Source: Deltaproteobacteria bacterium
GTDB lineage: Bacteria > Myxococcota_A > Polyangia > JAAYKL01
Direction: 5' to 3'
NCBI GenBank assembly: GCA_030591725.1
Contig: JAUVAN010000003.1
Coordinates: 1 to 42,185 of the forward strand
DNA: 42,185 bases
Within the stretch, counting starts at the first letter, position 1. Each line of letters begins with the position of its first letter. This document shows positions 7,282 through 22,630 of the stretch, in pieces. The position numbers and the translations under genes are program-made. Below the pieces are notes generated by a model, which was not told the origin of the DNA, ran no database searches, and saw nothing but the letters and a program-made list of their open reading frames with translations.

Positions 7282-8421
7282 ATGAGTTCGATGAAAAGAG
7301 TCGTCTCGTTTGTGTTGAACAATTTCACGAACGACAACAGGGTGCACAAGACTGCGAGGTCCCTCGCCGAAGCGGGTTATGACGTTACCGTCATGGCCCT
7401 GAAGCGGGGCGATGTCAAAGTCCGGGAAGAGATGGACGGCTTCAAGATTCGAAGAATCGAACTCATGTCCGATCTCCTTCCCGATGGAAAGATCTTCTCT
7501 GTTTTCAGACTTGCCGAGTTAGTAACAAAGACTTTCAATAACGGCGATAGGTTCGACATCTGCCACTGTAATGATTTCGAGCCAATGATTGTTGCGTCCC
7601 TGTGGAAAAAGCAAAATCCATCGCTGAAGATTGTCTACGATACTCACGAATACGCCCGGGAGAAGAACGGATTGAACGGGCTCAAGAAACTGTTTGTCAG
7701 GAGTGTCGAGCCCCTGTTGATCAAGAATGCAGACGAAGTGATCACGGTGAGCGAAGGCATAGCAACGGAATACAGGCGACTCTTCGGGCTCGAAAAAGTC
7801 AACGTGATCTACAATGCTCCTCACAAGGAGAAGACGAAGCGGCGGGACTTGCTTCAGAAGAACCTTGGTATCGGCCGGGAGAAAAAGATCTTTCTTTACC
7901 AGGGCGGGCTGGCGAAGGGACGCGGCGTCGAGCTGTTGATCAAGTCCTTTGAACGACTGCAGGAAACAAACGCCGTACTCGTCTTCATGGGTTACGGCGA
8001 TCTGATCACAAAAGTTCAGGAAGCCGCCGATAGAGAAACCAACATCTACTACCATCCGGTGGTACCGTACGACGAAATAGTGGCCCATACTTCCTCTGCA
8101 GATTTTGGTCTTCTTTCCGTGGAGAATGTTTGTCTCAGCTACTATTACTGCATGCCAAACAAGATGTTCGAATACATACATGCCCAAATTCCCATCATCA
8201 CCACCAACCTTCACGACTGTAAAAACCTGATAGAGGAAGAAAAGATCGGCCTGGTGATCCCCGAGTTCACAGTGGACAAAACTGTTGAAACCATTGAGGA
8301 AGCGCTCAAAATCGACACAGCACAGTTCGCTCCGGGTCTGCGTGCCGCAAAAGAGAAATTCCACTGGGCAATTGAAGAAAAAAAGTTGCTTGGCATATAT
8401 GCGCATCTGGAAAGTCGTTGA
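7282..8421 (+). CDS. GT4 family glycosyltransferase
   Basis: NDNRVHK, HCNDF, VYDTHE, LYQGGLAKGRG, PNKMFEYIHAQIPII. Confidence 0.9.
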   Translation: MSSMKRVVSFVLNNFTNDNRVHKTARSLAEAGYDVTVMALKRGDVKVREEMDGFKIRRIELMSDLLPDGKIFSVFRLAELVTKTFNNGDRFDICHCNDFEPMIVASLWKKQNPSLKIVYDTHEYAREKNGLNGLKKLFVRSVEPLLIKNADEVITVSEGIATEYRRLFGLEKVNVIYNAPHKEKTKRRDLLQKNLGIGREKKIFLYQGGLAKGRGVELLIKSFERLQETNAVLVFMGYGDLITKVQEAADRETNIYYHPVVPYDEIVAHTSSADFGLLSVENVCLSYYYCMPNKMFEYIHAQIPIITTNLHDCKNLIEEEKIGLVIPEFTVDKTVETIEEALKIDTAQFAPGLRAAKEKFHWAIEEKKLLGIYAHLESR

Positions 8422-8476
8422 TAGTTGGCATGTCTCTTATAGTTACTAGAGTCATCATTTGCCGGTCAGAAAATCC

Positions 8477-10024
8477 ATGAGCAAGATTGTTATCAGTAAA
8501 AAGCTCGCTTTCATCAATTCCGCCAGCGCATTTTTCATTCGCGTCTTGAGCATATCTGTACTTGTCTGGCTGCAGAGATTTCTTCTCAGTACCATTGATG
8601 TTGACGAGTATAGTCTTCTTCCAGTCTTGACCTCCCTGATTGTATTTCTGCCCCTCTTTTCCGGCACTCTCACAAATGGCTTATCAAGATTCGTAATCGA
8701 AGCGTATGCAACGGGAGACAATCAACGCGTCACGCAGATTACTTCGTCGATGAGTTTGCTCATTTTTCCTTTTGGGTTGGTAATCCTTGTAGCGGGAGGG
8801 ATTTTCGCATGGAATGTCGGAAATATTCTGACCGTCAGTGAACACCTCATTCCCGATGCCCGTTTGATGATGTTCTTGATGGTAATATCGTTTGTCCTCA
8901 ATACCGTAATGACGCCATTTCTCACCGGTTTCCATGTCAAACAGAAATTCGTCGCTCTCAATCTGATTAAACTTGGCCAGGAGTTATTGAGATTTGCGTT
9001 GCTCTTTCTTCTTCTTTTTGGAATTGGACCCAAAGTACTCTGGCTGGTCGTCGCTTCTTTTATTGCCGACATTACGTCGCTCTGTGTGAAGGTTACCTAT
9101 TCGTATCGACTAGTTCCATCAATTCGTTTCCGTTTCAGTCAGAGGAACTGGTCTGTTGCAAAGGAGGTCTCTTCTTTCGGCGGTTGGAGCATTCTTGGGC
9201 AACTAGCTAATTTGATTCGCCTGAGTGCGAATCCGATTATTCTCAACAAACTCAGCACTGAACTTGAGGTGGCCTGTTTTCATCTGGGCTCGATGCCGAC
9301 AACTCAGATTAGCCAGTTTCTGACTGTCATTCAGCAGCCGTTGAATCCACAACTGACCGCGCTATATGCAATGAAACGCATGGACGACTTGCGTAAAGCA
9401 TACGTTCGTGTGAACCGTTATGCTCTATTGGTTGTGTTGCTGGTGGCTGTGCCTCTCATGGTTTTCGCGGACGAATTAGTCATTCTCTGGGTTGGCAGCA
9501 ATTACTCTGATGCTGCATTGGTGGCAATACTTGGACTCGCCGTTTTTCCAACGCTGTATGCCAATATGCTTATGGGCAATATCGTAATTGCTACCGGCAA
9601 AATACGACAGTTCGCCATATTTTCATTGCTAATCCAGATAGGGAATCTGTTGCTGACTCTCTATCTTGTGGGAGAACAGCATCTTGGCGCCGTGGGAGCA
9701 GCATTTTCCAATTTTGTTACCATGTCTTTCGTTTTTCCCGTTGTCATGATTCCAATTACATTGCGACTTATTGATCTGAAGCTCTCTCGGTTCTTGAGAG
9801 ATACGGTCATTCCCGGTTGGCTCCCAGGAATCGCAGCAGTGTTCGTTGCCCTATCACTCAAATACTTCTTACAACCCGACACAATATTGTGGTTGATTCT
9901 CTCTGGTGTTATTATTACGTCTGTATATGTGTTAACGGCACTGCGATTTTCTCTAACAGAAGAAGACCATAAGATGATAAATACCTTTTTGACTGAAACA
10001 CGTGCCAAAATTCCCTTTTTATAG
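8477..10024 (+). CDS. oligosaccharide flippase (Wzx/MOP superfamily)
   Basis: About 12-14 TM segments, around 515 aa, SFGGWSILGQL and LGAVGAA, inside a glycan cluster; start is uncertain (8459 or 8477). Confidence 0.8.
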   Translation: MSKIVISKKLAFINSASAFFIRVLSISVLVWLQRFLLSTIDVDEYSLLPVLTSLIVFLPLFSGTLTNGLSRFVIEAYATGDNQRVTQITSSMSLLIFPFGLVILVAGGIFAWNVGNILTVSEHLIPDARLMMFLMVISFVLNTVMTPFLTGFHVKQKFVALNLIKLGQELLRFALLFLLLFGIGPKVLWLVVASFIADITSLCVKVTYSYRLVPSIRFRFSQRNWSVAKEVSSFGGWSILGQLANLIRLSANPIILNKLSTELEVACFHLGSMPTTQISQFLTVIQQPLNPQLTALYAMKRMDDLRKAYVRVNRYALLVVLLVAVPLMVFADELVILWVGSNYSDAALVAILGLAVFPTLYANMLMGNIVIATGKIRQFAIFSLLIQIGNLLLTLYLVGEQHLGAVGAAFSNFVTMSFVFPVVMIPITLRLIDLKLSRFLRDTVIPGWLPGIAAVFVALSLKYFLQPDTILWLILSGVIITSVYVLTALRFSLTEEDHKMINTFLTETRAKIPFL

Positions 10025-10062
10025 GAACAGAATCAAGTGAAAAGGAAAGCGCGGTAAATGAA

Positions 10063-10923
10063 ATGATCATCGTTCGCTTATCTGGGGGACTCGGGAACCA
10101 GATGTTTCAGTATGCTGCTGGAAGGCGACTTTCTGTTGTTCATGGAACAGCGTTGAAGCTTGATCTATCCTGGTTTGATGATTGGGATGCCAGAACATTT
10201 TCACTGGAATGCTTCGACATGCAAATACAAATCGCAACCAGAGAAGAAGTAGCTGCATTTACAAAAAGGTCATTGTCGAAAAATATTCTGGAGAAACTCT
10301 CGGGAAAACCTCCTGTAACACGAGAGAAATTCTATCATTTTGATCCAAAGGTTTTGTCGCTGTCCGACAAAGAATATCTCGACGGATACTGGCAGAGCGA
10401 GCAGTACTTTTCAGGCGTATCTGACACAATACACGCAGATTATCAGTTCCGTTCGCCCGTTTCCGGCAGAAACAAGTATCTTCAAGAAAAGGTACTTGAT
10501 ACTCAATCTGTCAGTATACATGTCAGGCGCGGAGACTATGTTACTGATCCAAAGACAAACAAGAAGCATGGTACATGCAGCGTCGAATATTATAAAAAAT
10601 GCATTCAGGAATTGAACCAAACACTGTCAGAACCTGTTTACTACGTTTTCAGTGATGATCCCGTTTGGGCAAGAGAGAATCTTTCCGGTTTAATGGACAT
10701 GGCAGAATACATCGACCACAATAAAAATAAAAATGCCTTTAATGACATGCGATTGATGAGTCTCTGCAAACACAATATTGTTGCCAATAGCAGTTTTTCC
10801 TGGTGGGGCGCATGGCTTAATAGAAACAAAGACAAGATTGTCTATGCACCAGAGAATTGGTTTGCCCCCGAGGAAAATAGAGACACGAGAGATCTATTCC
10901 CGCCAGATTGGAACACAAGGTGA
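10063..10923 (+). CDS. alpha-1,2-fucosyltransferase (GT11)
   Basis: GGLGNQMFQYA, GYWQSE, HVRRGDY, NSSFSWWGAWL are the GT11 motifs. Confidence 0.95.
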   Translation: MIIVRLSGGLGNQMFQYAAGRRLSVVHGTALKLDLSWFDDWDARTFSLECFDMQIQIATREEVAAFTKRSLSKNILEKLSGKPPVTREKFYHFDPKVLSLSDKEYLDGYWQSEQYFSGVSDTIHADYQFRSPVSGRNKYLQEKVLDTQSVSIHVRRGDYVTDPKTNKKHGTCSVEYYKKCIQELNQTLSEPVYYVFSDDPVWARENLSGLMDMAEYIDHNKNKNAFNDMRLMSLCKHNIVANSSFSWWGAWLNRNKDKIVYAPENWFAPEENRDTRDLFPPDWNTR

Positions 10924-10957
10924 TTGAAATGCCCGAGAAGAAAAACAGGAAGGGAAG

Positions 10958-11128
10958 ATGACCACGCCCCAAACGCCATTAGTCAGTGTTGTTATCACAA
11001 CATATAACAGGGCGGAAATGATTTGTGAATCTCTCGACTCCGTGCTGGAGCAGGACTTTGATTCATACGCAAGAATAATGGTTGCTTTTCGAAGAAGTTT
11101 CAAGATTCCTATGAATGGGATAAACTAG
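10958..11128 (+). pseudogene. truncated GT2 glycosyltransferase (N-terminal remnant, 56 codons)
   Basis: Manual translation MTTPQTPLVSVVITTYNRAEMICESLDSVLEQDFDSY... is the classic GT2 start. Similarity stops just before the expected E-x-I-V-V-D-D-G-S and the frame ends at TAG 11126-11128. A purine-rich RBS-like stretch lies upstream. Confidence 0.75.
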
Positions 11129-11129
11129 A

Positions 11130-11858
11130 ATGAGAGTTCGCAATATTATAGAGTCGCTGATGCCCAAGGTTGGAAGGGGTAACGAAGGCTTCCGTGAACG
11201 TTGGTTGGAAGAAGCCCTATTAAACATTCCTGACAACAGCAGGATTTTGGATGCCGGAGCTGGAACTCAACGGTATCGAAAATACTGCAGGCACTTGGAA
11301 TACGTTTCGCAGGATTTTGGGGAGTACGACGGAAAAGGTGATAATGCGGCGCTCCAAAAAGGGAAATTTGATTATGGAAAGTTGGACATTATCAGTGATA
11401 TTGTTTCAATTCCTGAACCAGATACATCTTTTGACGCAATAATGTGTATCGAGGTACTGGAACATTTGCCTGATCCTGTTCAGGCCATCAGGGAATTTAC
11501 CCGGTTACTCAAACCTAACGGGCATCTGATTCTTACGGCTCCATTCTGTTCATTTACCCATTTTGCCCCATATCATTTCGGTACCGGCTTCAATGAATAT
11601 TGGTATGAAAAACATCTGTTTGAAGACGATTATGTAAAAATAGACATGTGCAAGAATGGCAATTATTTCGAATTTCTGTCCCAGGAGATTCACAGAATTC
11701 CTTCCGTTTCAAGTCGTTATTCAAAAAGCAAGCCCAATCTGATTGAATCATTGAGTATTGTTGTTCTGCAAAGAATGCTCTTTCGTTTCAGCCAAAGAGA
11801 CCAGGGTTCTTCAGAGTTTTTGTGTTTTGGACATTGTATACATGCGAGAAAAACATGA
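11130..11858 (+). CDS. class I SAM-dependent methyltransferase (Methyltransf_11-like)
   Basis: ILDAGAG, FDAIMCIEVLEHLPDP, LLKPNGHLILTAPF. Confidence 0.9.
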   Translation: MRVRNIIESLMPKVGRGNEGFRERWLEEALLNIPDNSRILDAGAGTQRYRKYCRHLEYVSQDFGEYDGKGDNAALQKGKFDYGKLDIISDIVSIPEPDTSFDAIMCIEVLEHLPDPVQAIREFTRLLKPNGHLILTAPFCSFTHFAPYHFGTGFNEYWYEKHLFEDDYVKIDMCKNGNYFEFLSQEIHRIPSVSSRYSKSKPNLIESLSIVVLQRMLFRFSQRDQGSSEFLCFGHCIHARKT

Positions 11859-11877
11859 GAAATTGCGGGAGAATAAA

Positions 11878-12672
11878 ATGAAACGACAATTGCAAGGAGT
11901 AAAAAATATCTTGGTGATGTTCGGAGTAGACTTGGGCAAAATGCGAAGAACTTTGCGTGGTTTACCATCATACTATCGCGATTTGCGAATACTTAAAAGT
12001 CAGAGGTCATCGTCAATAGAGCAATTTCCGTTCAGAGAGCCATACCCTTGTCTTCACGATCGATATATGAAAAGTGGCGTAGCCAGTGGTCATTACTTTC
12101 ATCAGGATTTATTGGTGGCGAGAAGAATCTTTTTGAATCGTCCGAAAACTCATGTGGATATTGGATCAAGAATAGATGGTTTCGTTGCTCACGTCGCGTC
12201 ATTTCGGCAAATTGAGGTGCTCGATATACGTCCAATGTCGAGGAATATACCGAACATTAGTTTTACAAAAGCTGACCTTATGACGCCAATAGACGAAAAG
12301 TTGACGAATTACTGTGACTCGCTGTCATGCTTGCACGCGCTGGAACACTTTGGACTGGGGAGATACGGAGATCCTGTGAACAATGATGGCTACCTTATGG
12401 GATTGGATAATATGTGGAAGATACTGAAGAAGGGTGGAAGATTTTATTTTTCTGTCCCTATTGGTCCACAAAGGATAGAATTCAACGCTCACAGAGTATT
12501 TTCAGTTAGTTATTTGATGGAACAATTTTCTGGAAAATACAATATTGAACAGTTTTCATTTGTGGATGATAAAGGGGATTTGCATGAGAATGCAACGATC
12601 AATGGCGATGAAGCAGGAAATAGCTTTGGATGCAAGTACGGTTGCGGAATCTTTGAAATGACGAAAATATAG
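11878..12672 (+). CDS. DUF268-like methyltransferase-fold protein
   Basis: HYFHQDLLVA, HVDIGSRIDGFVAHVA, SLSCLHALEHFGLGRYGDP, FNAHRVF. Confidence 0.8.
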   Translation: MKRQLQGVKNILVMFGVDLGKMRRTLRGLPSYYRDLRILKSQRSSSIEQFPFREPYPCLHDRYMKSGVASGHYFHQDLLVARRIFLNRPKTHVDIGSRIDGFVAHVASFRQIEVLDIRPMSRNIPNISFTKADLMTPIDEKLTNYCDSLSCLHALEHFGLGRYGDPVNNDGYLMGLDNMWKILKKGGRFYFSVPIGPQRIEFNAHRVFSVSYLMEQFSGKYNIEQFSFVDDKGDLHENATINGDEAGNSFGCKYGCGIFEMTKI

Positions 12673-12733
12673 ATATGGATAAAGGCAACAATCAACGGTT
12701 ATTGCGACATGATAGCTTGGGGAACGAAATAGA

Positions 12734-13537
12734 ATGATAGGGATGGCAAAAAGAATAGTCAGAAGAGTCCTCAAGAGAGCACTCAGGAAAGTGCCAGGAT
12801 ATCGTTACTTTGAGGATTATTGGAAAACATATAGATATCAAGTTCTAAGCGAAGATGAAAAACGCTGTGTCAAATTCTATCAACAGTTTGTCAGGGAAGG
12901 TGATCTGGTTTTCGATGTTGGCGCAAATATGGGAACAAGGACAAAGGTGTTTTTAAAGCTTGGCGCCAGAGTTGTAGCATTTGAACCACAAAAGGCATGC
13001 TCTGATTATCTCAAAACGGTTCTGAAAGAGGAAGACGGTTTTACCCTGGTTGAAGCTGCCCTGGGAGAAGAAGACGGGGAAGCAGAAATGCTCATTAGCA
13101 ACGCGCATACTATTTCTACACTTTCAGAAGACTGGGTGAAGGCAACCAGGGAAAGTAGTCGTTTCAATCAATACGAATGGAACAGGAAACAAGCAGTTCG
13201 CGTTACTACATTGGATAATGTCATCAAGAAATACGGAACGCCGTCTTTCATAAAAATAGACGTTGAAGGCTATGAGAACGAAGTTCTAAAAGGTTTGTCG
13301 ACTCCGATACAATGCATTTCAATTGAATTCGCTGCTGAAGTTATCGAAAATACCTATAAATGTATTGAACACCTGTCCTCACTCTCAACTGTGTCATTTC
13401 AATATTCAGAAGGCGAGTCCATGGAGTTTAGTCTTCCGACATGGGTTTCAAAAAAGGAAATGGAGAACATACTTGAAGAGGTAGCTGAAAAGAATAAATT
13501 GGCATGGGGGGATGTGTATATTGTCAAAAAAGGATGA
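12734..13537 (+). CDS. FkbM family methyltransferase
   Basis: VFDVGANMG, VVAFEPQ, TLD...FIKIDVEGYENEVLKG. Confidence 0.92.
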   Translation: MIGMAKRIVRRVLKRALRKVPGYRYFEDYWKTYRYQVLSEDEKRCVKFYQQFVREGDLVFDVGANMGTRTKVFLKLGARVVAFEPQKACSDYLKTVLKEEDGFTLVEAALGEEDGEAEMLISNAHTISTLSEDWVKATRESSRFNQYEWNRKQAVRVTTLDNVIKKYGTPSFIKIDVEGYENEVLKGLSTPIQCISIEFAAEVIENTYKCIEHLSSLSTVSFQYSEGESMEFSLPTWVSKKEMENILEEVAEKNKLAWGDVYIVKKG

Positions 13538-13539
13538 TC

Positions 13540-14334
13540 TCAAGCCGGCTTCTTGCACACCATTATTTCCGTCGTCGGACTCTCGCTCAATGAAAGCGCA
13601 AGAAACAACTCAAGAGGATATAGAAAACCGCCGATAACCAAACCGGCAAGCTCACTCCGTGAGATAATCTTGCTTGTAAATCGCCAAAAAGCCTTGAGAA
13701 ACACATTATTAGTGTCAACTGGCGCATTCATCAGGCAAAACATGGGGGAGCGATCAAGTATTTCAAACCCGCACCCAGTCAGGAAGTGTTCAATTGTATC
13801 AAGTTGCCTACAGACTTGATGCTTGGACACTATTGTTTCCGTGTGTAAGAAATTTTCAGAGAGAACAAAAAGTCCACCTGGTTTGAGCAGAGAATAGATA
13901 TTTTCAATAGCTTTCTGATACTGTTGGTCATCTATAATATGGAACAAAACGTCAAACGCAGAAATGACATCGAATCTGCGATTGGCGAGAGTTCTGGTAT
14001 CTCCTCCTATATCAACCTGGTAAAATTCATGCTCCGGATATTTTTGTTTCAAATTATCAACTGCTGTTTGGGTCAGATCAACACCGACAAGATTTCGGAC
14101 AGCAAGCTCTCTCCATCTCTCAATGTAAAATCCCGTTCCTGAACCTATATCCAGGACATCGACACTGCGAAAATTTAAGAGCGTTGCTTTCATCTTGCGA
14201 AGAAAAACGTTTCTCCGTACTTTATACAGCCAGGCATTGTAATGCTTTCCAAGTCCAATAAAACCAACCCCTTGCAAATCGAACTGGTTGGATAACCGGG
14301 ATTCCCAATAATCTTTCGTACTAGCAGTCTTCAT
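13540..14334 (-). CDS. class I SAM-dependent methyltransferase
   Basis: VLDIGSGTG, FDVISAFDVLFHI, LLKPGGLFV; ATG 14334 overlaps the upstream GT2 stop (ATGA). Confidence 0.9.
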   Translation of the reverse strand: MKTASTKDYWESRLSNQFDLQGVGFIGLGKHYNAWLYKVRRNVFLRKMKATLLNFRSVDVLDIGSGTGFYIERWRELAVRNLVGVDLTQTAVDNLKQKYPEHEFYQVDIGGDTRTLANRRFDVISAFDVLFHIIDDQQYQKAIENIYSLLKPGGLFVLSENFLHTETIVSKHQVCRQLDTIEHFLTGCGFEILDRSPMFCLMNAPVDTNNVFLKAFWRFTSKIISRSELAGLVIGGFLYPLELFLALSLSESPTTEIMVCKKPA

Positions 14335-15350
14335 ACATCCTCCTCCTGGCACGCCAAGCGTCGAAGCAAATCTTTAACGATTTTAACCACGATCAAAGGA
14401 TTTACGTAGCAAGCCAAAGCAATAACATCTAGGGTACGCCTACCATGCCCATCATCCTTTCGACGATAGGCCAAGCCGAGCAGCCTTTCGGAGACATAGT
14501 TGCGTATAAAACGCTTCTCGGCTAGTGATAAAGCACTATTATTCATACCAACCTGGTAAAGTTCGTAGACAAGAGAGGCTGCTTGATGCACTTTTCGCGC
14601 TGATCCACAGTTCTGTCCACAAACACATCGAACTACATCTACGGGCACATCTTCACCCAGGAATTCCGACATCATCGTGTGGAACGCCCTTACCCGGTTC
14701 TGCCGATGCTCCACCGAACGCACTTTCGTGATGTTCGACCGGTGTTGTCGTAGGTGAAGCAATACATCGGGCAAATTTGCCAAACGGGTTACAAGACTTA
14801 GTCGTCGCCATAGGTCATGATCTTGGGCGGTCAACATCTCAGTGCAATAATCGCCGACCTGCTTTACAACCTCTTGTCGCATCATCACCGTAGGGTGTGC
14901 AATAGGAGTGAACAGGCAAAGGCACCACCTCAGAACCTCGTGCGTTTCAGGTGGCTCCCACTTACGGGATATGTTGCCATGTTCGTCAATGATTTGTACG
15001 GCACTTCCTACAACTCCAATCTCGTGATGCATGTCTAGAAAGTGAACCTGTTTGGCTAGTCGCTGTGGTAGGCTTGTATCATCTGCATCCATACGCGCCA
15101 AATATGGAGATCGCACCAGTGACAGTCCACGGTTAAGTGAGCGAGTCAAACCAATGTTACATTCATTCTCGAAATAGCGAATGCGCGGATCATCATACAA
15201 TTGTACTACCTCGGCACTACGATCCGTCGAACCATCATTAATGACAATGAATTCAAAATCGTCAAACGTCTGCTGCAATATGGATTCAATTGCTTGACCA
15301 AGAAAGGCTTCTCCATTGTAAACCGGCATGAGAACACTAACTTGGGGCAT
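14331..15350 (-). CDS. GT2 family glycosyltransferase
   Basis: VSVLMPVYNGE, INDGSTD, LARMDADD, AHPTVMMR, AQDHDLW. Confidence 0.93.
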   Translation of the reverse strand: MPQVSVLMPVYNGEAFLGQAIESILQQTFDDFEFIVINDGSTDRSAEVVQLYDDPRIRYFENECNIGLTRSLNRGLSLVRSPYLARMDADDTSLPQRLAKQVHFLDMHHEIGVVGSAVQIIDEHGNISRKWEPPETHEVLRWCLCLFTPIAHPTVMMRQEVVKQVGDYCTEMLTAQDHDLWRRLSLVTRLANLPDVLLHLRQHRSNITKVRSVEHRQNRVRAFHTMMSEFLGEDVPVDVVRCVCGQNCGSARKVHQAASLVYELYQVGMNNSALSLAEKRFIRNYVSERLLGLAYRRKDDGHGRRTLDVIALACYVNPLIVVKIVKDLLRRLACQEEDV

Positions 15351-15527
15351 CTAGGAATTCTCCAGAACGATTTCGGTGAACAATGCTTGAAAACAGCACT
15401 GATAGGTGTGATCGCGCAGAGTACGAGCGTTGCCGACTTGGCGAATCTTTTCCGCTTCTGTCGAATATGCCAGATAAGACCATACTACATTCAGAAAATC
15501 GTGATGTGCCGTAATTGACATCGACAT
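15351..15527 (-). pseudogene. C-terminal remnant of a CgeB/Glyco_trans_1_2-type glycosyltransferase
   Basis: SYLAYSTEAEKIRQVGNARTLRDHTYQCCFQALF resembles the typical tail YYLxxxEERxxIAxAGxxRxLxEHTY. Its stop abuts the GT2 start at 15350, and no N-terminal part is present. Confidence 0.6.
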
Positions 15528-15546
15528 TGAAAATCTCACCACCTGC

Positions 15547-16692
15547 CTAGCCCGTAGACTGGCATTTAAGAGCGCACTGGTAAAGATTCCCAAGATTCTC
15601 GACCAATCTCGCGGGTCCAAATCTGTCCAAACAACTCTCGCGAATTCGGGTGTCGTCATAGGAGTCGATATCTTTTTTCATCTTGGTCATCGCCGCCGCT
15701 AATGCATCGATGTCTCCCGCTGGCACCAGAACTCCTGATTCGTCATCAATTATATTATTCGGGCCGCCGCAAGCAGTCGCCACACAAGGCTTCCCACACG
15801 CCATCGCCTCGATGAGCACCACGCCAAACGTCTCGCCATGGCTGGACAGCACGAACGCATCGCAGGACTGCATTTGAGACAAGACCTCGTTTCTGCTCAG
15901 GTCGCCGAGAAAATGAACGCGCTTTTGAATTCCAAGTTCACAAGAGAGGTTTTTGAGATCATCAAGGAGCGTTCCACCTCCGCCGATAACCAACTCCACT
16001 TCGTCTTTGTCGGTGAAAGCTTTGGCGAAAGCTCGCAACAGGTCCTCGTGGCCCTTATTCTCTTTTAGCCAGCCTACATTCAGAAATTTAAAAGGGGTAC
16101 CCGCGCGTGAGTCGGCGGGGCGAAAAACGGGATCGACCATGTTTGGTACCCACTTCCATCCAGACGCACAGCGGCCCACCACCCGCTCAAGAACCTCACC
16201 TAGCGATGGGCTAACCACCGCCAAGCCAGCAGTTTTATCAAAAACTTTTCTTAAAATAGCCAAATGCCAAGGGGGTATTGCCGCACGTTCAAATACCGAG
16301 GCATGCTCCGTGATGACATACGGCACACCACAACGCGAAAATATCTGCAGCGCGGCCGGACCGGAGTAGATAGCGCTTTGCACGTGAATGACATCCGGTC
16401 TTCCGTGTCGGGCTTCGTACTCCCTGAACAATCGATAGAAACTCGCGGTCAACAAGACTAGATTCCAGATTTTGATCGTTATCGGTAGCGCTGGAATATA
16501 CCCGTAGATGGTCTCGATGCCGTCGTCATTATATCGCTCCACCCTTTTCTTGGTGCCCCTTTCCAGCTTCGAGGCAACCACACCGACTCTGAAACCGGCA
16601 TTTTTCAACGCGCGCGCTTGTTCGCGAAAGAAAATGCCATTGGTTGGCTGATCTGGATCGGGGTACCAGGATGGTAAAAAGAGAACATGCAT
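15547..16692 (-). CDS. GT4 family glycosyltransferase
   Basis: LFLPSWYP...GIFFREQA, YVITEHAS, ETFGVVLIEAMACGKPCVATACGG. Confidence 0.92.
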   Translation of the reverse strand: MHVLFLPSWYPDPDQPTNGIFFREQARALKNAGFRVGVVASKLERGTKKRVERYNDDGIETIYGYIPALPITIKIWNLVLLTASFYRLFREYEARHGRPDVIHVQSAIYSGPAALQIFSRCGVPYVITEHASVFERAAIPPWHLAILRKVFDKTAGLAVVSPSLGEVLERVVGRCASGWKWVPNMVDPVFRPADSRAGTPFKFLNVGWLKENKGHEDLLRAFAKAFTDKDEVELVIGGGGTLLDDLKNLSCELGIQKRVHFLGDLSRNEVLSQMQSCDAFVLSSHGETFGVVLIEAMACGKPCVATACGGPNNIIDDESGVLVPAGDIDALAAAMTKMKKDIDSYDDTRIRESCLDRFGPARLVENLGNLYQCALKCQSTG

Positions 16693-16807
16693 GAAGATCT
16701 AGTAGCACAACTGAATCGCCTGCCCAACCCGCCGGTGCGCTTCGGGTGAGTAGTTGTGTCCAGTCTCGACTATTTGTTTTTGTTCTTGTTTGAAGTTAAG
16801 TAGACGG

Positions 16808-17998
16808 ATGAGAAATCTCCTTTCATTTGCAAGAATGCTTGTTGTTGTAGCGCTTGGCCTTGTCGTGTTTTCGTCCCGAGCCGTGGCCCAGGAGGGAGGG
16901 GAAGAAGCCCCCACCACCGAAGATACACCACCTGCCGAAGAACCACCGCCCGCCGAAGAAGCGCCGCCTGCGGAAGAGGCTCAGCCTGCGGAGGAAGCTC
17001 CTGCTACGGAAGAGGAGCCGCCGGTCGAGGAAGAGCCACCGCTTGCGGAAGAACCGCCCCCCGAGGAGCCGCCGGTCGAGGAGGAAGAGCCGCCTGTGGA
17101 AGATCCCCCGTTATCCGAAGCGGCGATACTCGCCGCCGAGCGAGCGGCCAGGGCCAATGCGGCCGCTGCTGCCCCTTCGGTACCGCCTCCGTATGTTGAA
17201 CAACAGGCTGTCCCCCCGGAGGAACCCGCCGCGATCGATCCACCCAAGAAACCGGCTGCAATGCCGGATGAGGAGGAGGGGAAGGAAAAAGAAGAGGAGG
17301 AGGATATCTTCTCCTGGTTTTCGGTGGCTCCACAAGTGGGGTTCGCCTACTTCCCGGAGTCAAAATTCACGGTTGAGCAGTATGGCCGGACGGTAAATTT
17401 AACGGTGAAATCCCGAAAGGCCTTCGTTGGCAAAATCCACCTGGATCTGGGCGGAGATGGTATCGCGTTGGAGATCTCTCCGTTCCTGGCTTTGGAATCT
17501 GACGGCAGTGATTTTTCGAAACTCTCGGTCAACCCGGTGGCTGCTACGGGAGGGGTCGGAGGTGATTTCATAGCGGTAGGCGGCCAGCTCAGCCTGGTTT
17601 ACAGATTTGGAAGCGGGCCCTTCTTTCCGCACCTGGGACTGGGTTTCCACGGCGCCTACCTGATCAGCGACGCGATAGAATACGGCGCCGAGCTGTACGG
17701 GAGGATCCCTCTGGGTTTCACCTGGTATTTTGCCGAGCACGCTGCGCTCGTCATGGAGATAGGCTTTTTGTACGGGGTCACGGGCATCAAGGGCAAGGTG
17801 ACCATTGATATGAACTCGATCTATGAAGACTACGACATTGATCCCGATGACTTCGATCCCGACAATCCCCCGGCGGGTATGAGCGAGACAGAACTGGATG
17901 CCATGTTGCAGGGTCAGATCGAGAAGGAGCTGAACAAGGCGGTAAAGTTCGGCAAGGGATTCGGTTTCGACGCGCTCATCGGTATTCGTTTTCCCTGA
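16808..17998 (+). CDS. exported protein with a Pro/Glu-rich linker and a probable outer-membrane beta-barrel
   Basis: Signal peptide ending AVA-Q, a long EEPP/EEAP low-complexity tract, alternating amphipathic strands, and C-terminal ALIGIRFP. Confidence 0.7.
   Translation: MRNLLSFARMLVVVALGLVVFSSRAVAQEGGEEAPTTEDTPPAEEPPPAEEAPPAEEAQPAEEAPATEEEPPVEEEPPLAEEPPPEEPPVEEEEPPVEDPPLSEAAILAAERAARANAAAAAPSVPPPYVEQQAVPPEEPAAIDPPKKPAAMPDEEEGKEKEEEEDIFSWFSVAPQVGFAYFPESKFTVEQYGRTVNLTVKSRKAFVGKIHLDLGGDGIALEISPFLALESDGSDFSKLSVNPVAATGGVGGDFIAVGGQLSLVYRFGSGPFFPHLGLGFHGAYLISDAIEYGAELYGRIPLGFTWYFAEHAALVMEIGFLYGVTGIKGKVTIDMNSIYEDYDIDPDDFDPDNPPAGMSETELDAMLQGQIEKELNKAVKFGKGFGFDALIGIRFP
16908..17110 (+). repeat. 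degenerate ~18-bp coding repeats (PPAEE/EEPP)
   Basis: Repeated units such as ccgcctgcggaagag and gagccgccggtcgaggaa. Confidence 0.6.
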
Positions 17999-19369: not shown

Positions 19370-20107
19370 ATGAGACGTTTCAAGAAGCCGGTGGTCGATA
19401 AGGTCGATCCTCGATACCCCGAATACGAGATTGCGCAAAAAAGCAGACGGGAATTCATGGTCCTTCTGGGGGGCGCGGGAGCGGCGAGCCTGCTGATGGG
19501 TTGCGGTTCAAAAAATGAGCCGTTGGCGGGAAAGGTCACTTCTCCTCACGGGAAACTCGACGGGACAGACGTTTCTGAAGGTGCCGACTCGGCGCTCCTG
19601 ATCGCAAAGGAACCCGGTGATGAGCCGTCTGATAGCCAGCGCAAGCCGTCTCCTCCGGGTATGCCGCCACGGCCCGAGCATCTGGAAGTGCTCCGTCTTC
19701 CGCCCAACGCTGTTTACATTGCCTCCTTCTCCGGGGGCGGCAGCATCTCCTTCGCCGTATGGATAGAACACGACAATCCCAACCTCAGACCGTTCGTTCA
19801 CAAGAACCTCGATACGATAGGAAAAGCATTCACTGACGTAATCTCAAGGGGGTTTCACGCCTCGGATTTCGATCATCCCCGGGGCGAGGCGAGCGCAACG
19901 CGGCGTTTGCAAGAAACACTTGAGAAGCTCTACACAGGCGAGACAGGCGAACCCGCGAGAATAGGGTACTTGCGGCTCGAGATAAAACGCAATGACGACA
20001 AGATACCGGTTCCCGGCGGAATCGTAGCCCCGGTCGAACCCGAACCGCGTCCACGCCCTCGAGGTGTACCCGTGCTCAGGCCCATCATCCCAAAGGGAGT
20101 CAAGTGA
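19370..20107 (+). CDS. Tat-type lipoprotein with PxYP leader and FliL-like domain (radical SAM partner 1)
   Basis: MRRFKKPVVDKVDPRYP...SRREFMVLLGGAGAASLLMGC (twin-Arg plus lipobox); paralogous to the next two genes. Confidence 0.7.
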   Translation: MRRFKKPVVDKVDPRYPEYEIAQKSRREFMVLLGGAGAASLLMGCGSKNEPLAGKVTSPHGKLDGTDVSEGADSALLIAKEPGDEPSDSQRKPSPPGMPPRPEHLEVLRLPPNAVYIASFSGGGSISFAVWIEHDNPNLRPFVHKNLDTIGKAFTDVISRGFHASDFDHPRGEASATRRLQETLEKLYTGETGEPARIGYLRLEIKRNDDKIPVPGGIVAPVEPEPRPRPRGVPVLRPIIPKGVK

Positions 20108-20205
20108 TTGAACGCCGTTCCTGACGCGGTGCCGAATAATCACTGATCCTTTTATCGTTTCATTCGTCGAAAGAACCAGGGGCGGAAAACCCCCGGGGTA
20201 AAAAA

Positions 20206-20814
20206 ATGAAACGATCAAAAAATCCAGTCCGGGCATCGAGTAATCCAGCGTATCCAGAAGCCCGCGATGTATCCCACGTCAACCGCAGGAAGTTCATCTC
20301 GCTGCTCACGGCGGGAACAGCCTCCATTGCTGTCTTCGGCGCGGCGAAGGCCATTGGCGCGGCCCCTCACGATCCCCGTTTCGCGCCTCCTCCCCCGCCC
20401 CGGCCGTACGACCCGCCCGATCATCCGGTCCCTGGCGGGATGCGGCCTCCGGTCTTTGCCAACTACCGCTTACCTTCCCATGGGAGCTGGTCGACAATGA
20501 TGGATGACGGGCGTTACGTATCCTATGCCCTCTGGATCAAATACGACTACACCGAAGTGTTGAGATGCGTGAAGAACAGCAGTTCCGCCATCCAGAGTTA
20601 CCTCGGCGAGCTCGTGCGCAGATACCTGTACACTGAGAATATGTACAACCCCCGGCGTTTGAGAAAAGTCGAGCGGAAGATCCTGAAGAAGATCCGACGC
20701 CTCCTCCCGGATGTTCTCGACGACGACCTGTTGGGCGTGGAACTTGAAATACTTCGGGAAAAATACATTCAACCACTGGACGGCGATGTAGCCATCCCGC
20801 ACTATTTCGACTGA
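20206..20814 (+). CDS. Tat-type exported protein with PxYP leader and FliL-like domain (radical SAM partner 2)
   Basis: MKRSKNPVRASSNPAYP...NRRKFISLLTAGTASIAVFGAAKA (twin-Arg plus AxA site); TGATG overlap with the next gene. Confidence 0.75.
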   Translation: MKRSKNPVRASSNPAYPEARDVSHVNRRKFISLLTAGTASIAVFGAAKAIGAAPHDPRFAPPPPPRPYDPPDHPVPGGMRPPVFANYRLPSHGSWSTMMDDGRYVSYALWIKYDYTEVLRCVKNSSSAIQSYLGELVRRYLYTENMYNPRRLRKVERKILKKIRRLLPDVLDDDLLGVELEILREKYIQPLDGDVAIPHYFD

Positions 20815-21536
20815 TGGCACGTAACAAGAAACCTGCATTCGCGGTTGCGGAACCGACGTATCCCAGCGTCGAAGACGCCGGAATCAACCGCAGGCGTTTT
20901 CTCGCAATTCTGGCCGGCGGCGCGGCGGCCACCGCGATCTTCACCGGTTGCAAAAAGAATGAACACGAAAGGCTTCCCGGACAAGAACCGGTTCCCCGGC
21001 TGTCAGGAGTAGCGCCCAACCCGGATCCGCCGGTGGAGGTAATTCCGCGTGCGTTCGCAATTCCCAGGATAGTACTCCCCGGTCTCGTCGATCTGAGCAA
21101 CGACCTGAATGCCCCCCCGCCCAACATTACCGGCATGCAGGTGAATCTGCCCGATCGAACATCTACGGCATTCACCCTCTTCTTTTCGTGGGAGACTGAC
21201 GCAGATCGCGACCTGATTGTCCGCCGTGCCGATCTGCTCATGACGACGGCGAGCAATTACCTTTCGAGCAGCTGCAATCATCGCTCTGTCACCGATCCGG
21301 TTGGCATTACCGAGACCCGGAACGCCCTTCGGCCGCTGCTCCTGGACAAACTCGGGAGACCGGGGCGAATTTACTTCCTCGATATCCAGTTCGGGCGGGT
21401 GGCACGTGTAGACCATGTCATGGGTCGTACGCCCAGACCCAGACCCCGGCCCCGGCCCCGGCCGAGACCGAAACCGCGCCTGAATGGCAAGTCTGCGATG
21501 CCGTTGAACGTCAAGGACCCCTTCAAGGAACGTTGA
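20814..21536 (+). CDS. Tat-type lipoprotein with PxYP leader and FliL-like domain (radical SAM partner 3)
   Basis: MARNKKPAFAVAEPTYP...NRRRFLAILAGGAAATAIFTGC; (RP)n tract; TGATG overlap with the radical SAM gene. Confidence 0.75.
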   Translation: MARNKKPAFAVAEPTYPSVEDAGINRRRFLAILAGGAAATAIFTGCKKNEHERLPGQEPVPRLSGVAPNPDPPVEVIPRAFAIPRIVLPGLVDLSNDLNAPPPNITGMQVNLPDRTSTAFTLFFSWETDADRDLIVRRADLLMTTASNYLSSSCNHRSVTDPVGITETRNALRPLLLDKLGRPGRIYFLDIQFGRVARVDHVMGRTPRPRPRPRPRPRPKPRLNGKSAMPLNVKDPFKER

Positions 21537-22630
21537 TGGACGTAACTCTTTTCCTGAATCATGCGTGCAATATGGCTTGCACATACTGCTACAACGGCAA
21601 CAAGTTTCATCGCCCCATGTCGGAAGAGATAATGCGAAAGGCCGTTGAGATGGCCTTCTTCGGGAAGGACGCGCGTGTCTCATTCTTCGGTGGCGAGCCG
21701 TTACTGGAGTGGGAAATGATGCAGCGGGCCATGGCCTACGCCCGCGATCTGGAGAAAAACAAATACGAGGGCAAGACCCCCGTGCGCTTCTCCATGACCA
21801 CCAATGGAACCCTGGTGTCAAGGGAGGTGCTCGAGATCCTGAAGAACGAACGCTTTCACCTCGTCTTCAGCCTCGACGGAAACCGCGAGTCACATGAGCG
21901 CACCCGATCCTTCGCGAACGGCGCCTCTTCGTATGATGTGATCGTGGAAAACCTGAAGCGCGCAGTCAAGGCCATTCCTTCGGTGGAGACAATAACGGTC
22001 ATCGATCCCCAAAACGCCGAGCTGATCCCTGAGTCGTTCGAATCGATAATGTCCCTCGGCGTGAAGAACCTGAACTTCTCCCTGAATTACGAAGCCGAAT
22101 GGACCGACGAGCAAGTGGCGACGCTCGAGCATTCTCTCGATCGGCTGGTGGATATCTATATCGCAAAATACCGTGAGGGTATCGACTTCGCGCTGGATCT
22201 GTTCGACTCCAAGGTGATCACCCACCTCAAGGGCGGATACGCCTGTCGAGATCGGTGCAAGTTTGGAAAGGAAGAACTCTGCGTTGCCCCCAGCGGCATG
22301 CTCTATCCCTGCGAGCGCCTGGTTGGAGAGGATACCCGTCATGACGTGACGATCGGAGACATCTGGAAGGGCCCCGATCTCCAGAAGGTTGTGGAGATGG
22401 GCAAACAAAAGGACGAGCCCGACGCCGAATGTGTGGACTGCAAGCTCCAGCACCGCTGTATGTTCTGGTGCGGCTGCGTCAACTACGCAACCACGGGCAA
22501 CGTGGGAGAGACGTCCGGTATCCTTTGCAAGCTCGAGCAGATGACCATCGCGGCTGCCGACAGGGCGGCGGGAACGCTCTTCAAGGAAGAAAACCCGATG
22601 TTTATCGGAAAGTTCTACTGCGCCACGTAG
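21536..22630 (+). CDS. radical SAM/SPASM domain enzyme (anSME-like maturase)
   Basis: CNMACTYC, FFGGEP, TTNGT, SLDG; SPASM cysteines CKFG...PSGMLYPC...CVDC-x5-C-x3-CGC...LC; no N-terminal RRE extension. Confidence 0.93.
   Translation: MDVTLFLNHACNMACTYCYNGNKFHRPMSEEIMRKAVEMAFFGKDARVSFFGGEPLLEWEMMQRAMAYARDLEKNKYEGKTPVRFSMTTNGTLVSREVLEILKNERFHLVFSLDGNRESHERTRSFANGASSYDVIVENLKRAVKAIPSVETITVIDPQNAELIPESFESIMSLGVKNLNFSLNYEAEWTDEQVATLEHSLDRLVDIYIAKYREGIDFALDLFDSKVITHLKGGYACRDRCKFGKEELCVAPSGMLYPCERLVGEDTRHDVTIGDIWKGPDLQKVVEMGKQKDEPDAECVDCKLQHRCMFWCGCVNYATTGNVGETSGILCKLEQMTIAAADRAAGTLFKEENPMFIGKFYCAT

Follow-up and report, generated by a model that had tools for sequence, protein, structure and literature searches.

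DAG-RiPPs are hybrids of lipoproteins and peptides that are made by the ribosome and modified after translation (RiPPs), in which a multinuclear non-haem iron-dependent oxidase (MNIO) of the ChrH/DybH type acts on Cys motifs; their precursors bear the lipobox signal of signal peptidase II (SPII), and the lipoprotein pathway removes the leader and lipidates the product, according to the portion of the report drawn on here (PMC13056109). Among radical S-adenosylmethionine (radical SAM) enzymes with a SPASM domain, the cyclopropylglycine synthases TvgB and TigE act on Val or Ile before Gly in TVGG and TIGSVS repeats, and are defined by a GYW motif that ligates auxiliary cluster I (PMC10878394). 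The subject of the present analysis, which is computational throughout, is a group of four same-strand genes that fill positions 19370-22630 of contig JAUVAN010000003.1 from a Deltaproteobacteria bacterium of the Polyangia; the whole stretch of 42,185 nucleotides is termed the window. Three of the genes (W1, W2 and W3) encode exported proteins that begin with a common leader placed ahead of the signal peptide, and the fourth encodes a radical SAM/SPASM enzyme. It is probable, judging from sequence comparison and structure prediction, that they form a two-component maturation system, in which an enzyme devoid of a RiPP recognition element (RRE) reads the leader as a tag and modifies the exported proteins before their export.

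The leader and its probable partner enzyme

W1 begins with MRRFKKPVVDKVDPRYP, W2 with MKRSKNPVRASSNPAYP and W3 with MARNKKPAFAVAEPTYP. The leaders (residues 1-17; + strand, 19370-19420 for W1, 20206-20256 for W2 and 20814-20864 for W3), of which that of W1 was modelled as the predicted enzyme-binding tag, fit the pattern M-x-R-x-K-x-P-x6-P-x-Y-P. The first 29 residues align without gaps, with M1, R3, K5, P7, P14, Y16, P17, R26, R27 and F29 invariant, although the overall identity of the three proteins is just 28-29%. The RR motifs SRREF, NRRKF and NRRRF lie 8-9 residues past YP and are followed by a hydrophobic stretch. An earlier note on this DNA had described the shared leader, the RR motif and the lipobox of genes 1 and 3 or the AxA site of gene 2, and the alignment of W1-3 agrees with that description.

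The leader motif in W1-3 is beyond chance. When the whole host genome (4.13 Mb in 513 contigs, 86% complete) was searched in six frames with the regular expression P.YP.{3,16}RR.[FLIVM], 10 matches were obtained and only 4 of them open a signal peptide, namely W1-3 and an OmpA-like lipoprotein on another contig (C58). About nine other signals of the twin-arginine translocation (Tat) type, read by eye in the same genome, are devoid of the motif, and their N-regions are short and unrelated. Across relatives the tag can be anchored on its Tyr, giving the consensus M(-13)-[EK]-[IRK]-[KR]-[PK]-V-x-x-(Y)-x-x-[PA]-x-Y-P, where Met is found 13 residues ahead of Tyr in 25/60 non-redundant precursors and in 53/134 representatives of the family to which W1-3 belong (W-type family). 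In shorter form the 15-17-residue tag can be written M-x-[R/I]-K-P-V-x5-6-P-x-Y-P, where the distance from Met to Tyr is in most cases 13 residues. The protein on contig C58 (1498-2208) is a tagged lipoprotein of 236 aa with the lipobox LSAC, and its C-terminal domain is matched at E 2.7e-21 by a model for OmpA-like lipoproteins, with a score short of the cut-off. Its gene lies between gmk and a gene for an aspartic-protease-like protein, with no radical SAM gene nearby, and tagged OmpA-like counterparts, likewise remote from the enzyme, are present in both sister genomes (G001 contig C112, G002 contig C140). By its sequence, this putatively peptidoglycan-binding lipoprotein is a candidate substrate in trans.

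The association of the leader with this radical SAM clade, which had been proposed from the window alone, was recovered in related genomes, at public loci and in a held-out sample. Among 41 related genomes the enzyme was found at E≤1e-40 in 12, and 11 of these have an adjacent tagged gene. A PxYP-RR-lipobox gene stands immediately upstream of each of the eight orthologues (8/8) with at least 42% identity, which come from another family as well as from five genera of the family; loci in the genus of the window have three tagged genes each, and those elsewhere one. Distant orthologues (31-33% identity) number three, of which two (genomes G006 and G031) neighbour RR-less variants of the tag, one upstream and one downstream, and the third sits behind an ATP-grasp gene. 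A leader profile built from ten Myxococcota-type leaders gave full-length matches (E≤6.4e-15) in exactly those 9 of the 41 genomes that carry an orthologue with at least 42% identity, and only partial, generic Tat-region matches (E≥8e-5) in the remaining 32.

In a public survey with one genome per species, an adjacent leader-bearing gene was found at 57/80 loci (50 by an automatic rule, minus the false hit L065, plus 8 by eye); five of the loci without a tagged gene have less than 400 bp of upstream sequence. The paired loci are labelled Myxococcota, Akkermansia, Bacillota, Riflebacteria, Spirochaetota, Ignavibacteriota, Fibrobacterota, Zixiibacteriota, Krumholzibacteriota and GN15, i.e., about ten phylum-level labels in all. 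The tagged gene is immediately downstream of the enzyme in six loci of the Fibrobacterota–Chlorobiota–Bacteroidota (FCB) group and candidate phyla, and at the loci surveyed no neighbour other than the tagged gene is conserved beside the enzyme. For the held-out test 401 genomes of the phylum were sampled, and the enzyme was detected in 40 of them at E≤1e-70, with 2-4 copies in some; 40 loci were fetched and, after removal of five duplicates of earlier ones, 35 were new. A tagged gene is present at 22/35 (18 by rule, genuine by eye, and four more by eye), and one additional locus has a PxFP variant. These sequence comparisons suggest that the pairing of enzyme and tag is strong and old but not universal.

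Several enzyme subclades have no adjacent tagged gene (L034 in genome G032, L106 in a Haliangium-labelled metagenome-assembled genome (MAG), and L168 and L179 in genomes G170 and G204); in one such subclade an ATP-grasp gene of D-Ala-D-Ala-ligase-like type directly precedes the enzyme gene, and in another a glutamate-racemase-like gene precedes it. Six MAG records are labelled Enterobacterales or Rickettsiales (L038-L042 and L053). In the enzyme tree, a quick IQ-TREE run in which the false hit L065 bears a precursor label, L038-L042, which have Myxococcota-type RR leaders, fall within the Myxococcota part and L053 branches alone, and for these reasons the record labels look unreliable.

The enzyme (364 aa; 21536-22630, + strand) is matched by Pfam PF04055 (radical SAM; 76.3 bits, cut-off 29.5) and PF13186 (SPASM; 24.5 bits, cut-off 21.5). 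Its CxxxCxxC motif spans residues 12-19, C12, C16 and C19 are present in 81/81 family members, and the median position of the first cluster Cys in these 81 members is 11 (range 5-12). With the motif at residues 12-19 there is no room for an N-terminal RRE, the absence of which the earlier note had stated, and the RRE-containing CteB aligns solely from its residue 99. The SPASM part shows the Cys pattern C242-x12-G-x4-C260 and C300xxC303x5C309x3C313...C332; columns 242, 260, 300, 303, 309, 313 and 332 are kept in 80-81/81 members, and an extra C315 in 76/81. The chain ends with a family-specific C-terminal helix (xADRxAxxL[YFW]...FY).

The best NCBIfam match of the enzyme is PapB (NF047865), with 211.3 bits over residues 4-325 against a cut-off of 340, and with orthologues this model gave scores of 214 (Akkermansiaceae) and 244 (Ignavibacteriales). 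Lower scores were obtained with the CXXX-repeat model TIGR04115 (157.8 bits vs 350), with SCIFF (TIGR03974; 147.5 bits vs 425, matching from model position 100), with QhpD (122 bits vs 453) and with the anaerobic sulfatase-maturating enzyme (anSME) model TIGR03942 (93.4 bits vs 349.45). The closest solved structure by sequence is CteB (5wgg; 1.3e-49, profile positions 3-339). Databases name members of the family just 'radical SAM protein' or 'uncharacterized protein', and no description of the enzyme-leader pairing was found in the full-text literature, subscription journals and supplementary files lying outside that scope. The suggestion that the system is new holds in so far as no family name or published description was found within this scope; the system is not confined to the locus and forms a widespread family.

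Predicted recognition, cargo and export

How could an enzyme without an RRE recognise its partners? A co-fold was computed with the enzyme (7-row alignment), residues 1-62 of W1 (15-row alignment), three 4Fe-4S clusters and SAM. The interface score ipSAE, which is derived from predicted aligned errors, reached 0.77 (runs 0.75, 0.80 and 0.77) compared with 0.00 for the best of three controls, with a predicted local distance difference test (pLDDT) value of at least 53 for the partner and a contact agreement of at least 69%. The ipSAE mark is reached by 58/80 solved complexes and 2/110 mismatched pairs, and serves as a rough guide here, as the co-fold used its own alignments and ligands. Confident contacts of the leader involve residues 3-12, 14-20 and 22, which correspond to the conserved tag, and those of the enzyme involve residues 190, 228, 231-234, 299-305, 327-336, 343-351 and 362-363. 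In the model Tyr16 occupies a pocket of the last helix formed by residues 228, 231, 343, 346, 347, 349, 350 and 351. Many of the enzyme positions are family-conserved, i.e., D343 in 76, A346 in 68, L349 in 80, an aromatic residue at 350 in 67, Y362 in 72, W190 in 78 and H231 in 55 of 81 members, and the pocket positions differ or are missing in the CXXX-type paralogue of the host genome. We infer that the tag binds to the family-specific C-terminal helix of the SPASM domain, and the proposal that the leader extension is a recognition tag is consistent with this model.

The tagged proteins differ widely beyond the signal peptide. W1 is a precursor of 245 aa (19370-20107, + strand) that contains, after the leader, SRREF and a hydrophobic region, the lipobox LMGC (Cys45), a linker with the motif EPLAGKVTSP (19517-19546, + strand; 5 residues past the lipobox Cys), a domain at about residues 100-210 and a motif at the C-terminal flank of this domain (IPVPGGIVAP, 20003-20032, + strand), in which G216 and P221 are invariant in W1-3. 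In its AlphaFold model (mean pLDDT 73.5, above 90 over residues ~100-210) W1 matches the periplasmic domain of FliL (7sgn_A, Z 13.0, root-mean-square deviation 2.0 Å, 97 residues aligned), chain 6ahq_A (Z 12.2), and stomatin and HflK-type (SPFH) chains with Z 9-10; the Foldseek search of W1 gave E 4.6e-4. The W1 cargo can therefore be assigned to the FliL/SPFH (band-7) fold at the level of predicted fold only, and not to a Pfam sequence family; leads from the ESM Atlas are weak (best 0.81, FliL cluster 0.76, mark 0.9). W2, a paralogue of 202 aa (20206-20814, + strand), has the leader, NRRKF and a hydrophobic region with an AKA site instead of a lipobox Cys, and contains the motifs KAIGAAPHDP, PVPGGMRPP and PLDGDVAIP. 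W3, a paralogue of 240 aa (20814-21536, + strand), has the leader, NRRRF, the lipobox FTGC (Cys46) and the motifs RLPGQEPVP and HVMGRTPRP, followed by a PR-repeat tail.

The profile of the W-type family collected 266 representatives at E≤0.001; among the best 150 of these, 136 have Y[PSA] within the first 45 residues and 113 have RR, and the 14 without Y[PSA] are mostly fragments or have an upstream start. A second precursor family (type B), which occurs in Bacillota, in the FCB group and in a single myxobacterium, is built on a different alpha/beta domain, whose model (from locus L064) gave only middling structural matches, the best with Z 9.0 to the catalytic domain of a homing endonuclease, and this domain is therefore left without a fold assignment. 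Other precursors are proteins with acidic DTDT repeats, Pro-rich peptides of 60-130 residues in Akkermansia, and the OmpA-like protein. When 18 precursor proteins were compared with Pfam and NCBIfam, no family was named, except for the OmpA-like domain of the C58 protein.

Common to the precursors are the leader, the signal peptide and, soon after the lipobox Cys, an h-x-G-x-x-P motif, defined as a hydrophobic residue, any residue, Gly and then Pro within four residues (e.g., PLAGVPAPP, TVGPPPLP, IVGIVPNP and the linker motif of W1). It lies at most 25 residues past the lipobox Cys in 35/51 precursors compared with 39/356 control lipobox open reading frames (ORFs) of the host genome; the enrichment is weak over all Gly residues and becomes clear once the motif is anchored on the lipobox Cys. 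Proteins of the W-type family show the motif once more past the domain, near the C-terminus, where the W1 motif PVPGGIVAP aligns with I-D-G-D or I-L-G-D of relatives. The earlier note had regarded the ~200-aa proteins as the target of modification; their modification before export is retained as a proposal, and the short linker motif is the likelier target since the cargo domains differ so much. Precursors of the Riflebacteria type (L079, L091, L104 and L111) contain PPPC-x-G-[DE]-[VI]-A-x-P repeats, with Cys where others have Val, Leu or Ile, and by its sequence this variant could undergo thioether chemistry.

As to export, the host genome encodes TatC, LspA (partial, at a contig end) and four copies of Lgt. 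These four (PF01790, above cut-off, on contigs C60, C24, C168 and C47) are unusually many for a 4.1-Mb genome. Tat hidden Markov models (HMMs) miss their cut-offs on W1 and W3 (TIGR01409, 13.1 vs 16.7; PF10518, 16.3 vs 22.7), and for that reason the Tat assignment is based on the motif read by eye and on the genomic TatC. The RR motif is present in most Myxococcota precursors. In the precursors of Akkermansia, YP directly adjoins the hydrophobic core of an ordinary lipoprotein signal with no RR, and in those of Bacillota and the FCB group a spacer of 25-35 residues without RR separates YP from the signal. Since these relatives bear the same leader on RR-less, Sec-type signals, Tat appears from the sequences to be a feature of the lineage and not a part of the definition of the system; the three partners were previously described as Tat-exported, which fits the RR motif here and the TatC of the genome and does not extend to the system in general. 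A lipobox-like Cys, called by pattern as in W1, W3 and the C58 protein, is found in 51/60 non-redundant precursors; W2 has none.

Maturation model and rival explanations

In the model that we prefer, the cytoplasmic, RRE-less enzyme would dock on the fixed N-terminal tag ahead of the signal peptide and, by means of a 5'-deoxyadenosyl radical, would modify the precursor before export. The likeliest target would be the h-x-G-x-x-P motif just past the lipobox Cys, which recurs either on the C-terminal side of the domain or, in precursors that are acidic or Pro-rich, many times over. The modified precursor would then be released for export, by Tat in this lineage (with its RR motif and foldable FliL/SPFH-like cargo) and by Sec in others. 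Finally, Lgt and LspA, or signal peptidase I in the case of W2, would strip the tag together with the signal peptide, leaving a modified and mostly lipid-anchored protein. We infer the binding from the co-fold and from conservation, and what is said of catalysis, of the site that is modified, of the sequence of steps and of the chemistry is likewise put forward as prediction; the chemistry may be other than thioether formation, e.g., epimerisation or a C-C or C-O link, because most copies of the motif contain no Cys. In comparison with the protein-modification system outlined in the earlier note, the partnership of tag and enzyme and the removal of the leader with the signal peptide are kept at the core, and the role of Tat, the scope and the target are corrected. 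A fuller version of this model can be offered tentatively. It would be a class of radical SAM-modified lipoproteins not described before and spread across phyla, in which the C-terminal helix of the RRE-less enzyme reads the tag ahead of a Sec or Tat lipoprotein signal, the h-x-G-x-x-P tethers receive a new modification of non-thioether type, and the cargo is unrelated and includes short Akkermansia peptides as well as FliL/SPFH-like and OmpA-like envelope proteins.

Several points weigh against the preferred model. The covalent modification itself is predicted by computation, and the co-fold reports the confidence of a model, which placed the leader and Cys45 confidently and not the proposed core, and which may reflect resemblance to solved leader-enzyme complexes. 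The closest named enzymes form thioethers on Cys, yet W1-3 have no conserved Cys beyond the lipobox. The leader profile was built from the very genomes that score with it, so that only the absences and the OmpA-like hits in the two sister genomes are independent. No adjacent precursor was found at 18/80 public and 12/35 held-out loci, which include a subclade of Akkermansia, another linked to ATP-grasp and a family linked to murI; co-location alone is in any case no proof of an enzyme-substrate pair, since adjacent genes co-occur by inheritance. The p-value of the linker motif overstates its enrichment, because the motif was chosen after inspection of the sequences, among precursors that are related to one another, and was compared with crude controls.

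One may ask if the same system could be built around a thioether synthase of the PapB/CteB type, which would link the lipobox Cys or a motif Cys and for which the copies without Cys would not be substrates. The best relatives of the enzyme are thioether formers (PapB, SCIFF and CteB, with the scores given above), Cys45 is among the confident contacts of the co-fold, the repeats of the Riflebacteria type place Cys at -2 of Gly with an acidic residue after it, and precursors of the L050 type carry H-D-C-x-x-L-C instead of the C-terminal GD motif. We nevertheless consider this explanation unlikely, given that every thioether-family model scores far below its cut-off, that Cys is lacking in and around the motif in W2 and several relatives, that most motif copies have V, L, I or T where those of Riflebacteria have Cys, and that a link on the lipobox Cys would block Lgt. 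The Cys content of the window proteins is one in W1 (the lipobox), one in W2 (position 121) and two in W3 (46 and 154), none of them in a Cys-Xn-Asp/Glu core.

It is still less probable that the enzyme is mainly a tag-binding chaperone or proof-reader of export, which would keep hold of the precursor until folding is complete, as chaperones of Tat signal peptides do, and would leave the mature protein covalently unchanged or nearly so. The contacts predicted by the co-fold reach residue 22, near RR at 26-27, and the TGATG overlap of precursor and enzyme genes suggests near-stoichiometric synthesis, as such a role would have it; the preservation of all three Fe-S cluster motifs in 76-81/81 members across phyla argues instead for catalysis, and the same tag is found on Sec-type signals, where a folding checkpoint is not expected. 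The least probable explanation is adjacency without partnership, the enzyme serving another substrate (e.g., as an anSME-like or cofactor maturase) and the tag another factor, for although 30/115 loci (18/80 and 12/35) have the enzyme without an adjacent tagged gene and the tagged OmpA-like protein is encoded far from the enzyme, the pairing is kept over about ten phylum labels, in some of which the gene order is reversed (tagged gene downstream in the FCB group), the loci share no further conserved neighbour, full-length leader hits occur solely in enzyme-bearing genomes, the co-fold is specific against three controls, and there is neither a sulfatase motif nor a sulfatase neighbour, with anSME at 93 bits vs 349.

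Gene layout and relation to known systems

The four genes are closely spaced. The junction of W2 and W3 reads cTGATGg and that of W3 and the enzyme gene tTGATGg, i.e., both are stop/start overlaps, as the earlier note had claimed. The start of the enzyme is most likely ATG at 21536 rather than TTG at 21533 given in the ORF list, because the orthologues begin with MD/MH-[VL]-x-LFL and because the TGATG overlap fits. The 98-nt spacer between W1 and W2 contains a GC-rich hairpin with an 8-bp stem (20176-20196), just upstream of the W2 start and directly before its ribosome-binding region, with no T-run on the + strand; promoter and terminator scans of the locus gave no signal above shuffle level. 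The flanking genes are of a housekeeping kind and encode glycosyltransferases, an Lnb_N protein, a zinc-ribbon protein, iPGM, RlmH and RsfS. At 16754-17998 the window encodes a protein of 414 aa with a signal peptide, a long Pro/Glu/Ala-rich repeat (PPAEE-like) and no Pfam match. Positions 8001-14000 have a GC content of 0.41-0.45 compared with 0.55-0.60 elsewhere and are adjoined by glycosyltransferase genes at 14331-16692, which together suggest a polysaccharide gene block, possibly acquired. Among public sequencing runs, none with RNA was listed for the locus, and one DNA run with at least half of its words may be the source sample.

In relation to the systems described so far, the closest named enzyme is PapB, which resembles the window enzyme as a radical SAM enzyme with a full SPASM domain that acts on a ribosomal precursor encoded adjacently. 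The core of PapA and ranthipeptide precursors is a Cys-Xn-Asp/Glu motif. W1-3, in contrast, have no Cys-X3-Asp/Glu core, and the precursors here are exported proteins or lipoproteins of 60-500 aa with the tag before the signal peptide. CteB differs in its N-terminal RRE, which has no counterpart in the window enzyme (the alignment starts at CteB residue 99), and it leaves uncovered the last ~25 residues of the enzyme family, i.e., the predicted leader-binding helix. The anSME enzymes (TIGR03942; PDB 4k36-4k39) are similar in being RRE-less, of similar length, and in modifying whole proteins in the cytoplasm before export. An anSME or sulfatase role was ruled out on the grounds of the far-sub-threshold score together with the lack of a substrate motif ((C/S)xPxR, or more loosely [CS]x[PA]xR) in W1-3 and of sulfatases among the window neighbours and, by a crude regular expression, among 1833 ORFs of the 80 loci, and sequence evidence thus agrees with the earlier view that this is not ordinary anSME biology.

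Many precursors carry T-V-G, V-V-G or I-V-G and in this respect resemble the substrates of TvgB and TigE, and the 472-aa chain 8vpo_A, a putative TigE, scores only 2.3e-14 against the window enzyme. The GYW motif of these synthases is found in 0/81 members of the family, by which a cyclopropyl synthase was ruled out, and TvgB and TigE have an RRE. A candidate linked in the literature to DUF1842/1843 (XYE) operons was also rejected as a different system; it is absent among the best 25 of 72 NCBIfam matches. The host genome itself has a CXXX-repeat system (L009; contig C409, 180-4032; TIGR04115 517.4 bits vs 350, plus TIGR04119 and TIGR04116), in which an RRE-less radical SAM/SPASM maturase accompanies a precursor of 378 aa, whose signal, composed of DRRGF and the lipobox LQSCG, is preceded by a long extension at the N-terminus (MKKRPNEIEAV...); the start of this precursor is found again on contig C191. 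The maturase is 27% identical to the window enzyme, and the precursor differs in its leader and Cys-rich core. Radical SAM-linked lipoproteins with Tat-type signals are therefore not unique to the operon in the window. The product of the Qhp system works outside the cytoplasm. Both QhpD, acting on QhpC, and CrpC, acting on CrpA, are cross-linking SPASM enzymes whose substrates are protein-sized and not short peptides, and they differ from the window enzyme in that their substrates are Cys-rich and CrpC has an RRE, as given in the part of PMC13692751 relied on here.

If the proposed model is true, SPASM enzymes would have a new, RRE-independent way of substrate recognition, and envelope lipoproteins of Myxococcota, gut Akkermansia, Bacillota and several candidate phyla would be covalently modified near their lipid anchor. 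These predictions lend themselves to direct testing, as the system is a two-gene unit with some precursors of 60-100 residues and with residues to mutate predicted on both partners. It would also add a radical SAM branch to the routing of enzymatically modified precursors through the lipoprotein pathway, and here its nearest parallel is found in the DAG-RiPPs, which likewise have a precursor with an SPII lipobox signal encoded beside a cytoplasmic modifying enzyme. The terms 'radical SAM', 'rSAM' and 'twin' do not occur in the text of PMC13056109. The differences, judged from the portion of that report drawn on above, are the use of a radical SAM/SPASM enzyme in place of an MNIO, the separate conserved tag ahead of the signal peptide and, in this lineage, a Tat-type signal. 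The concept of a modified lipoprotein precursor has thus already been published for MNIO enzymes (PMC13056109, same portion), and the system in the window may be regarded, by analogy, as its radical SAM counterpart.

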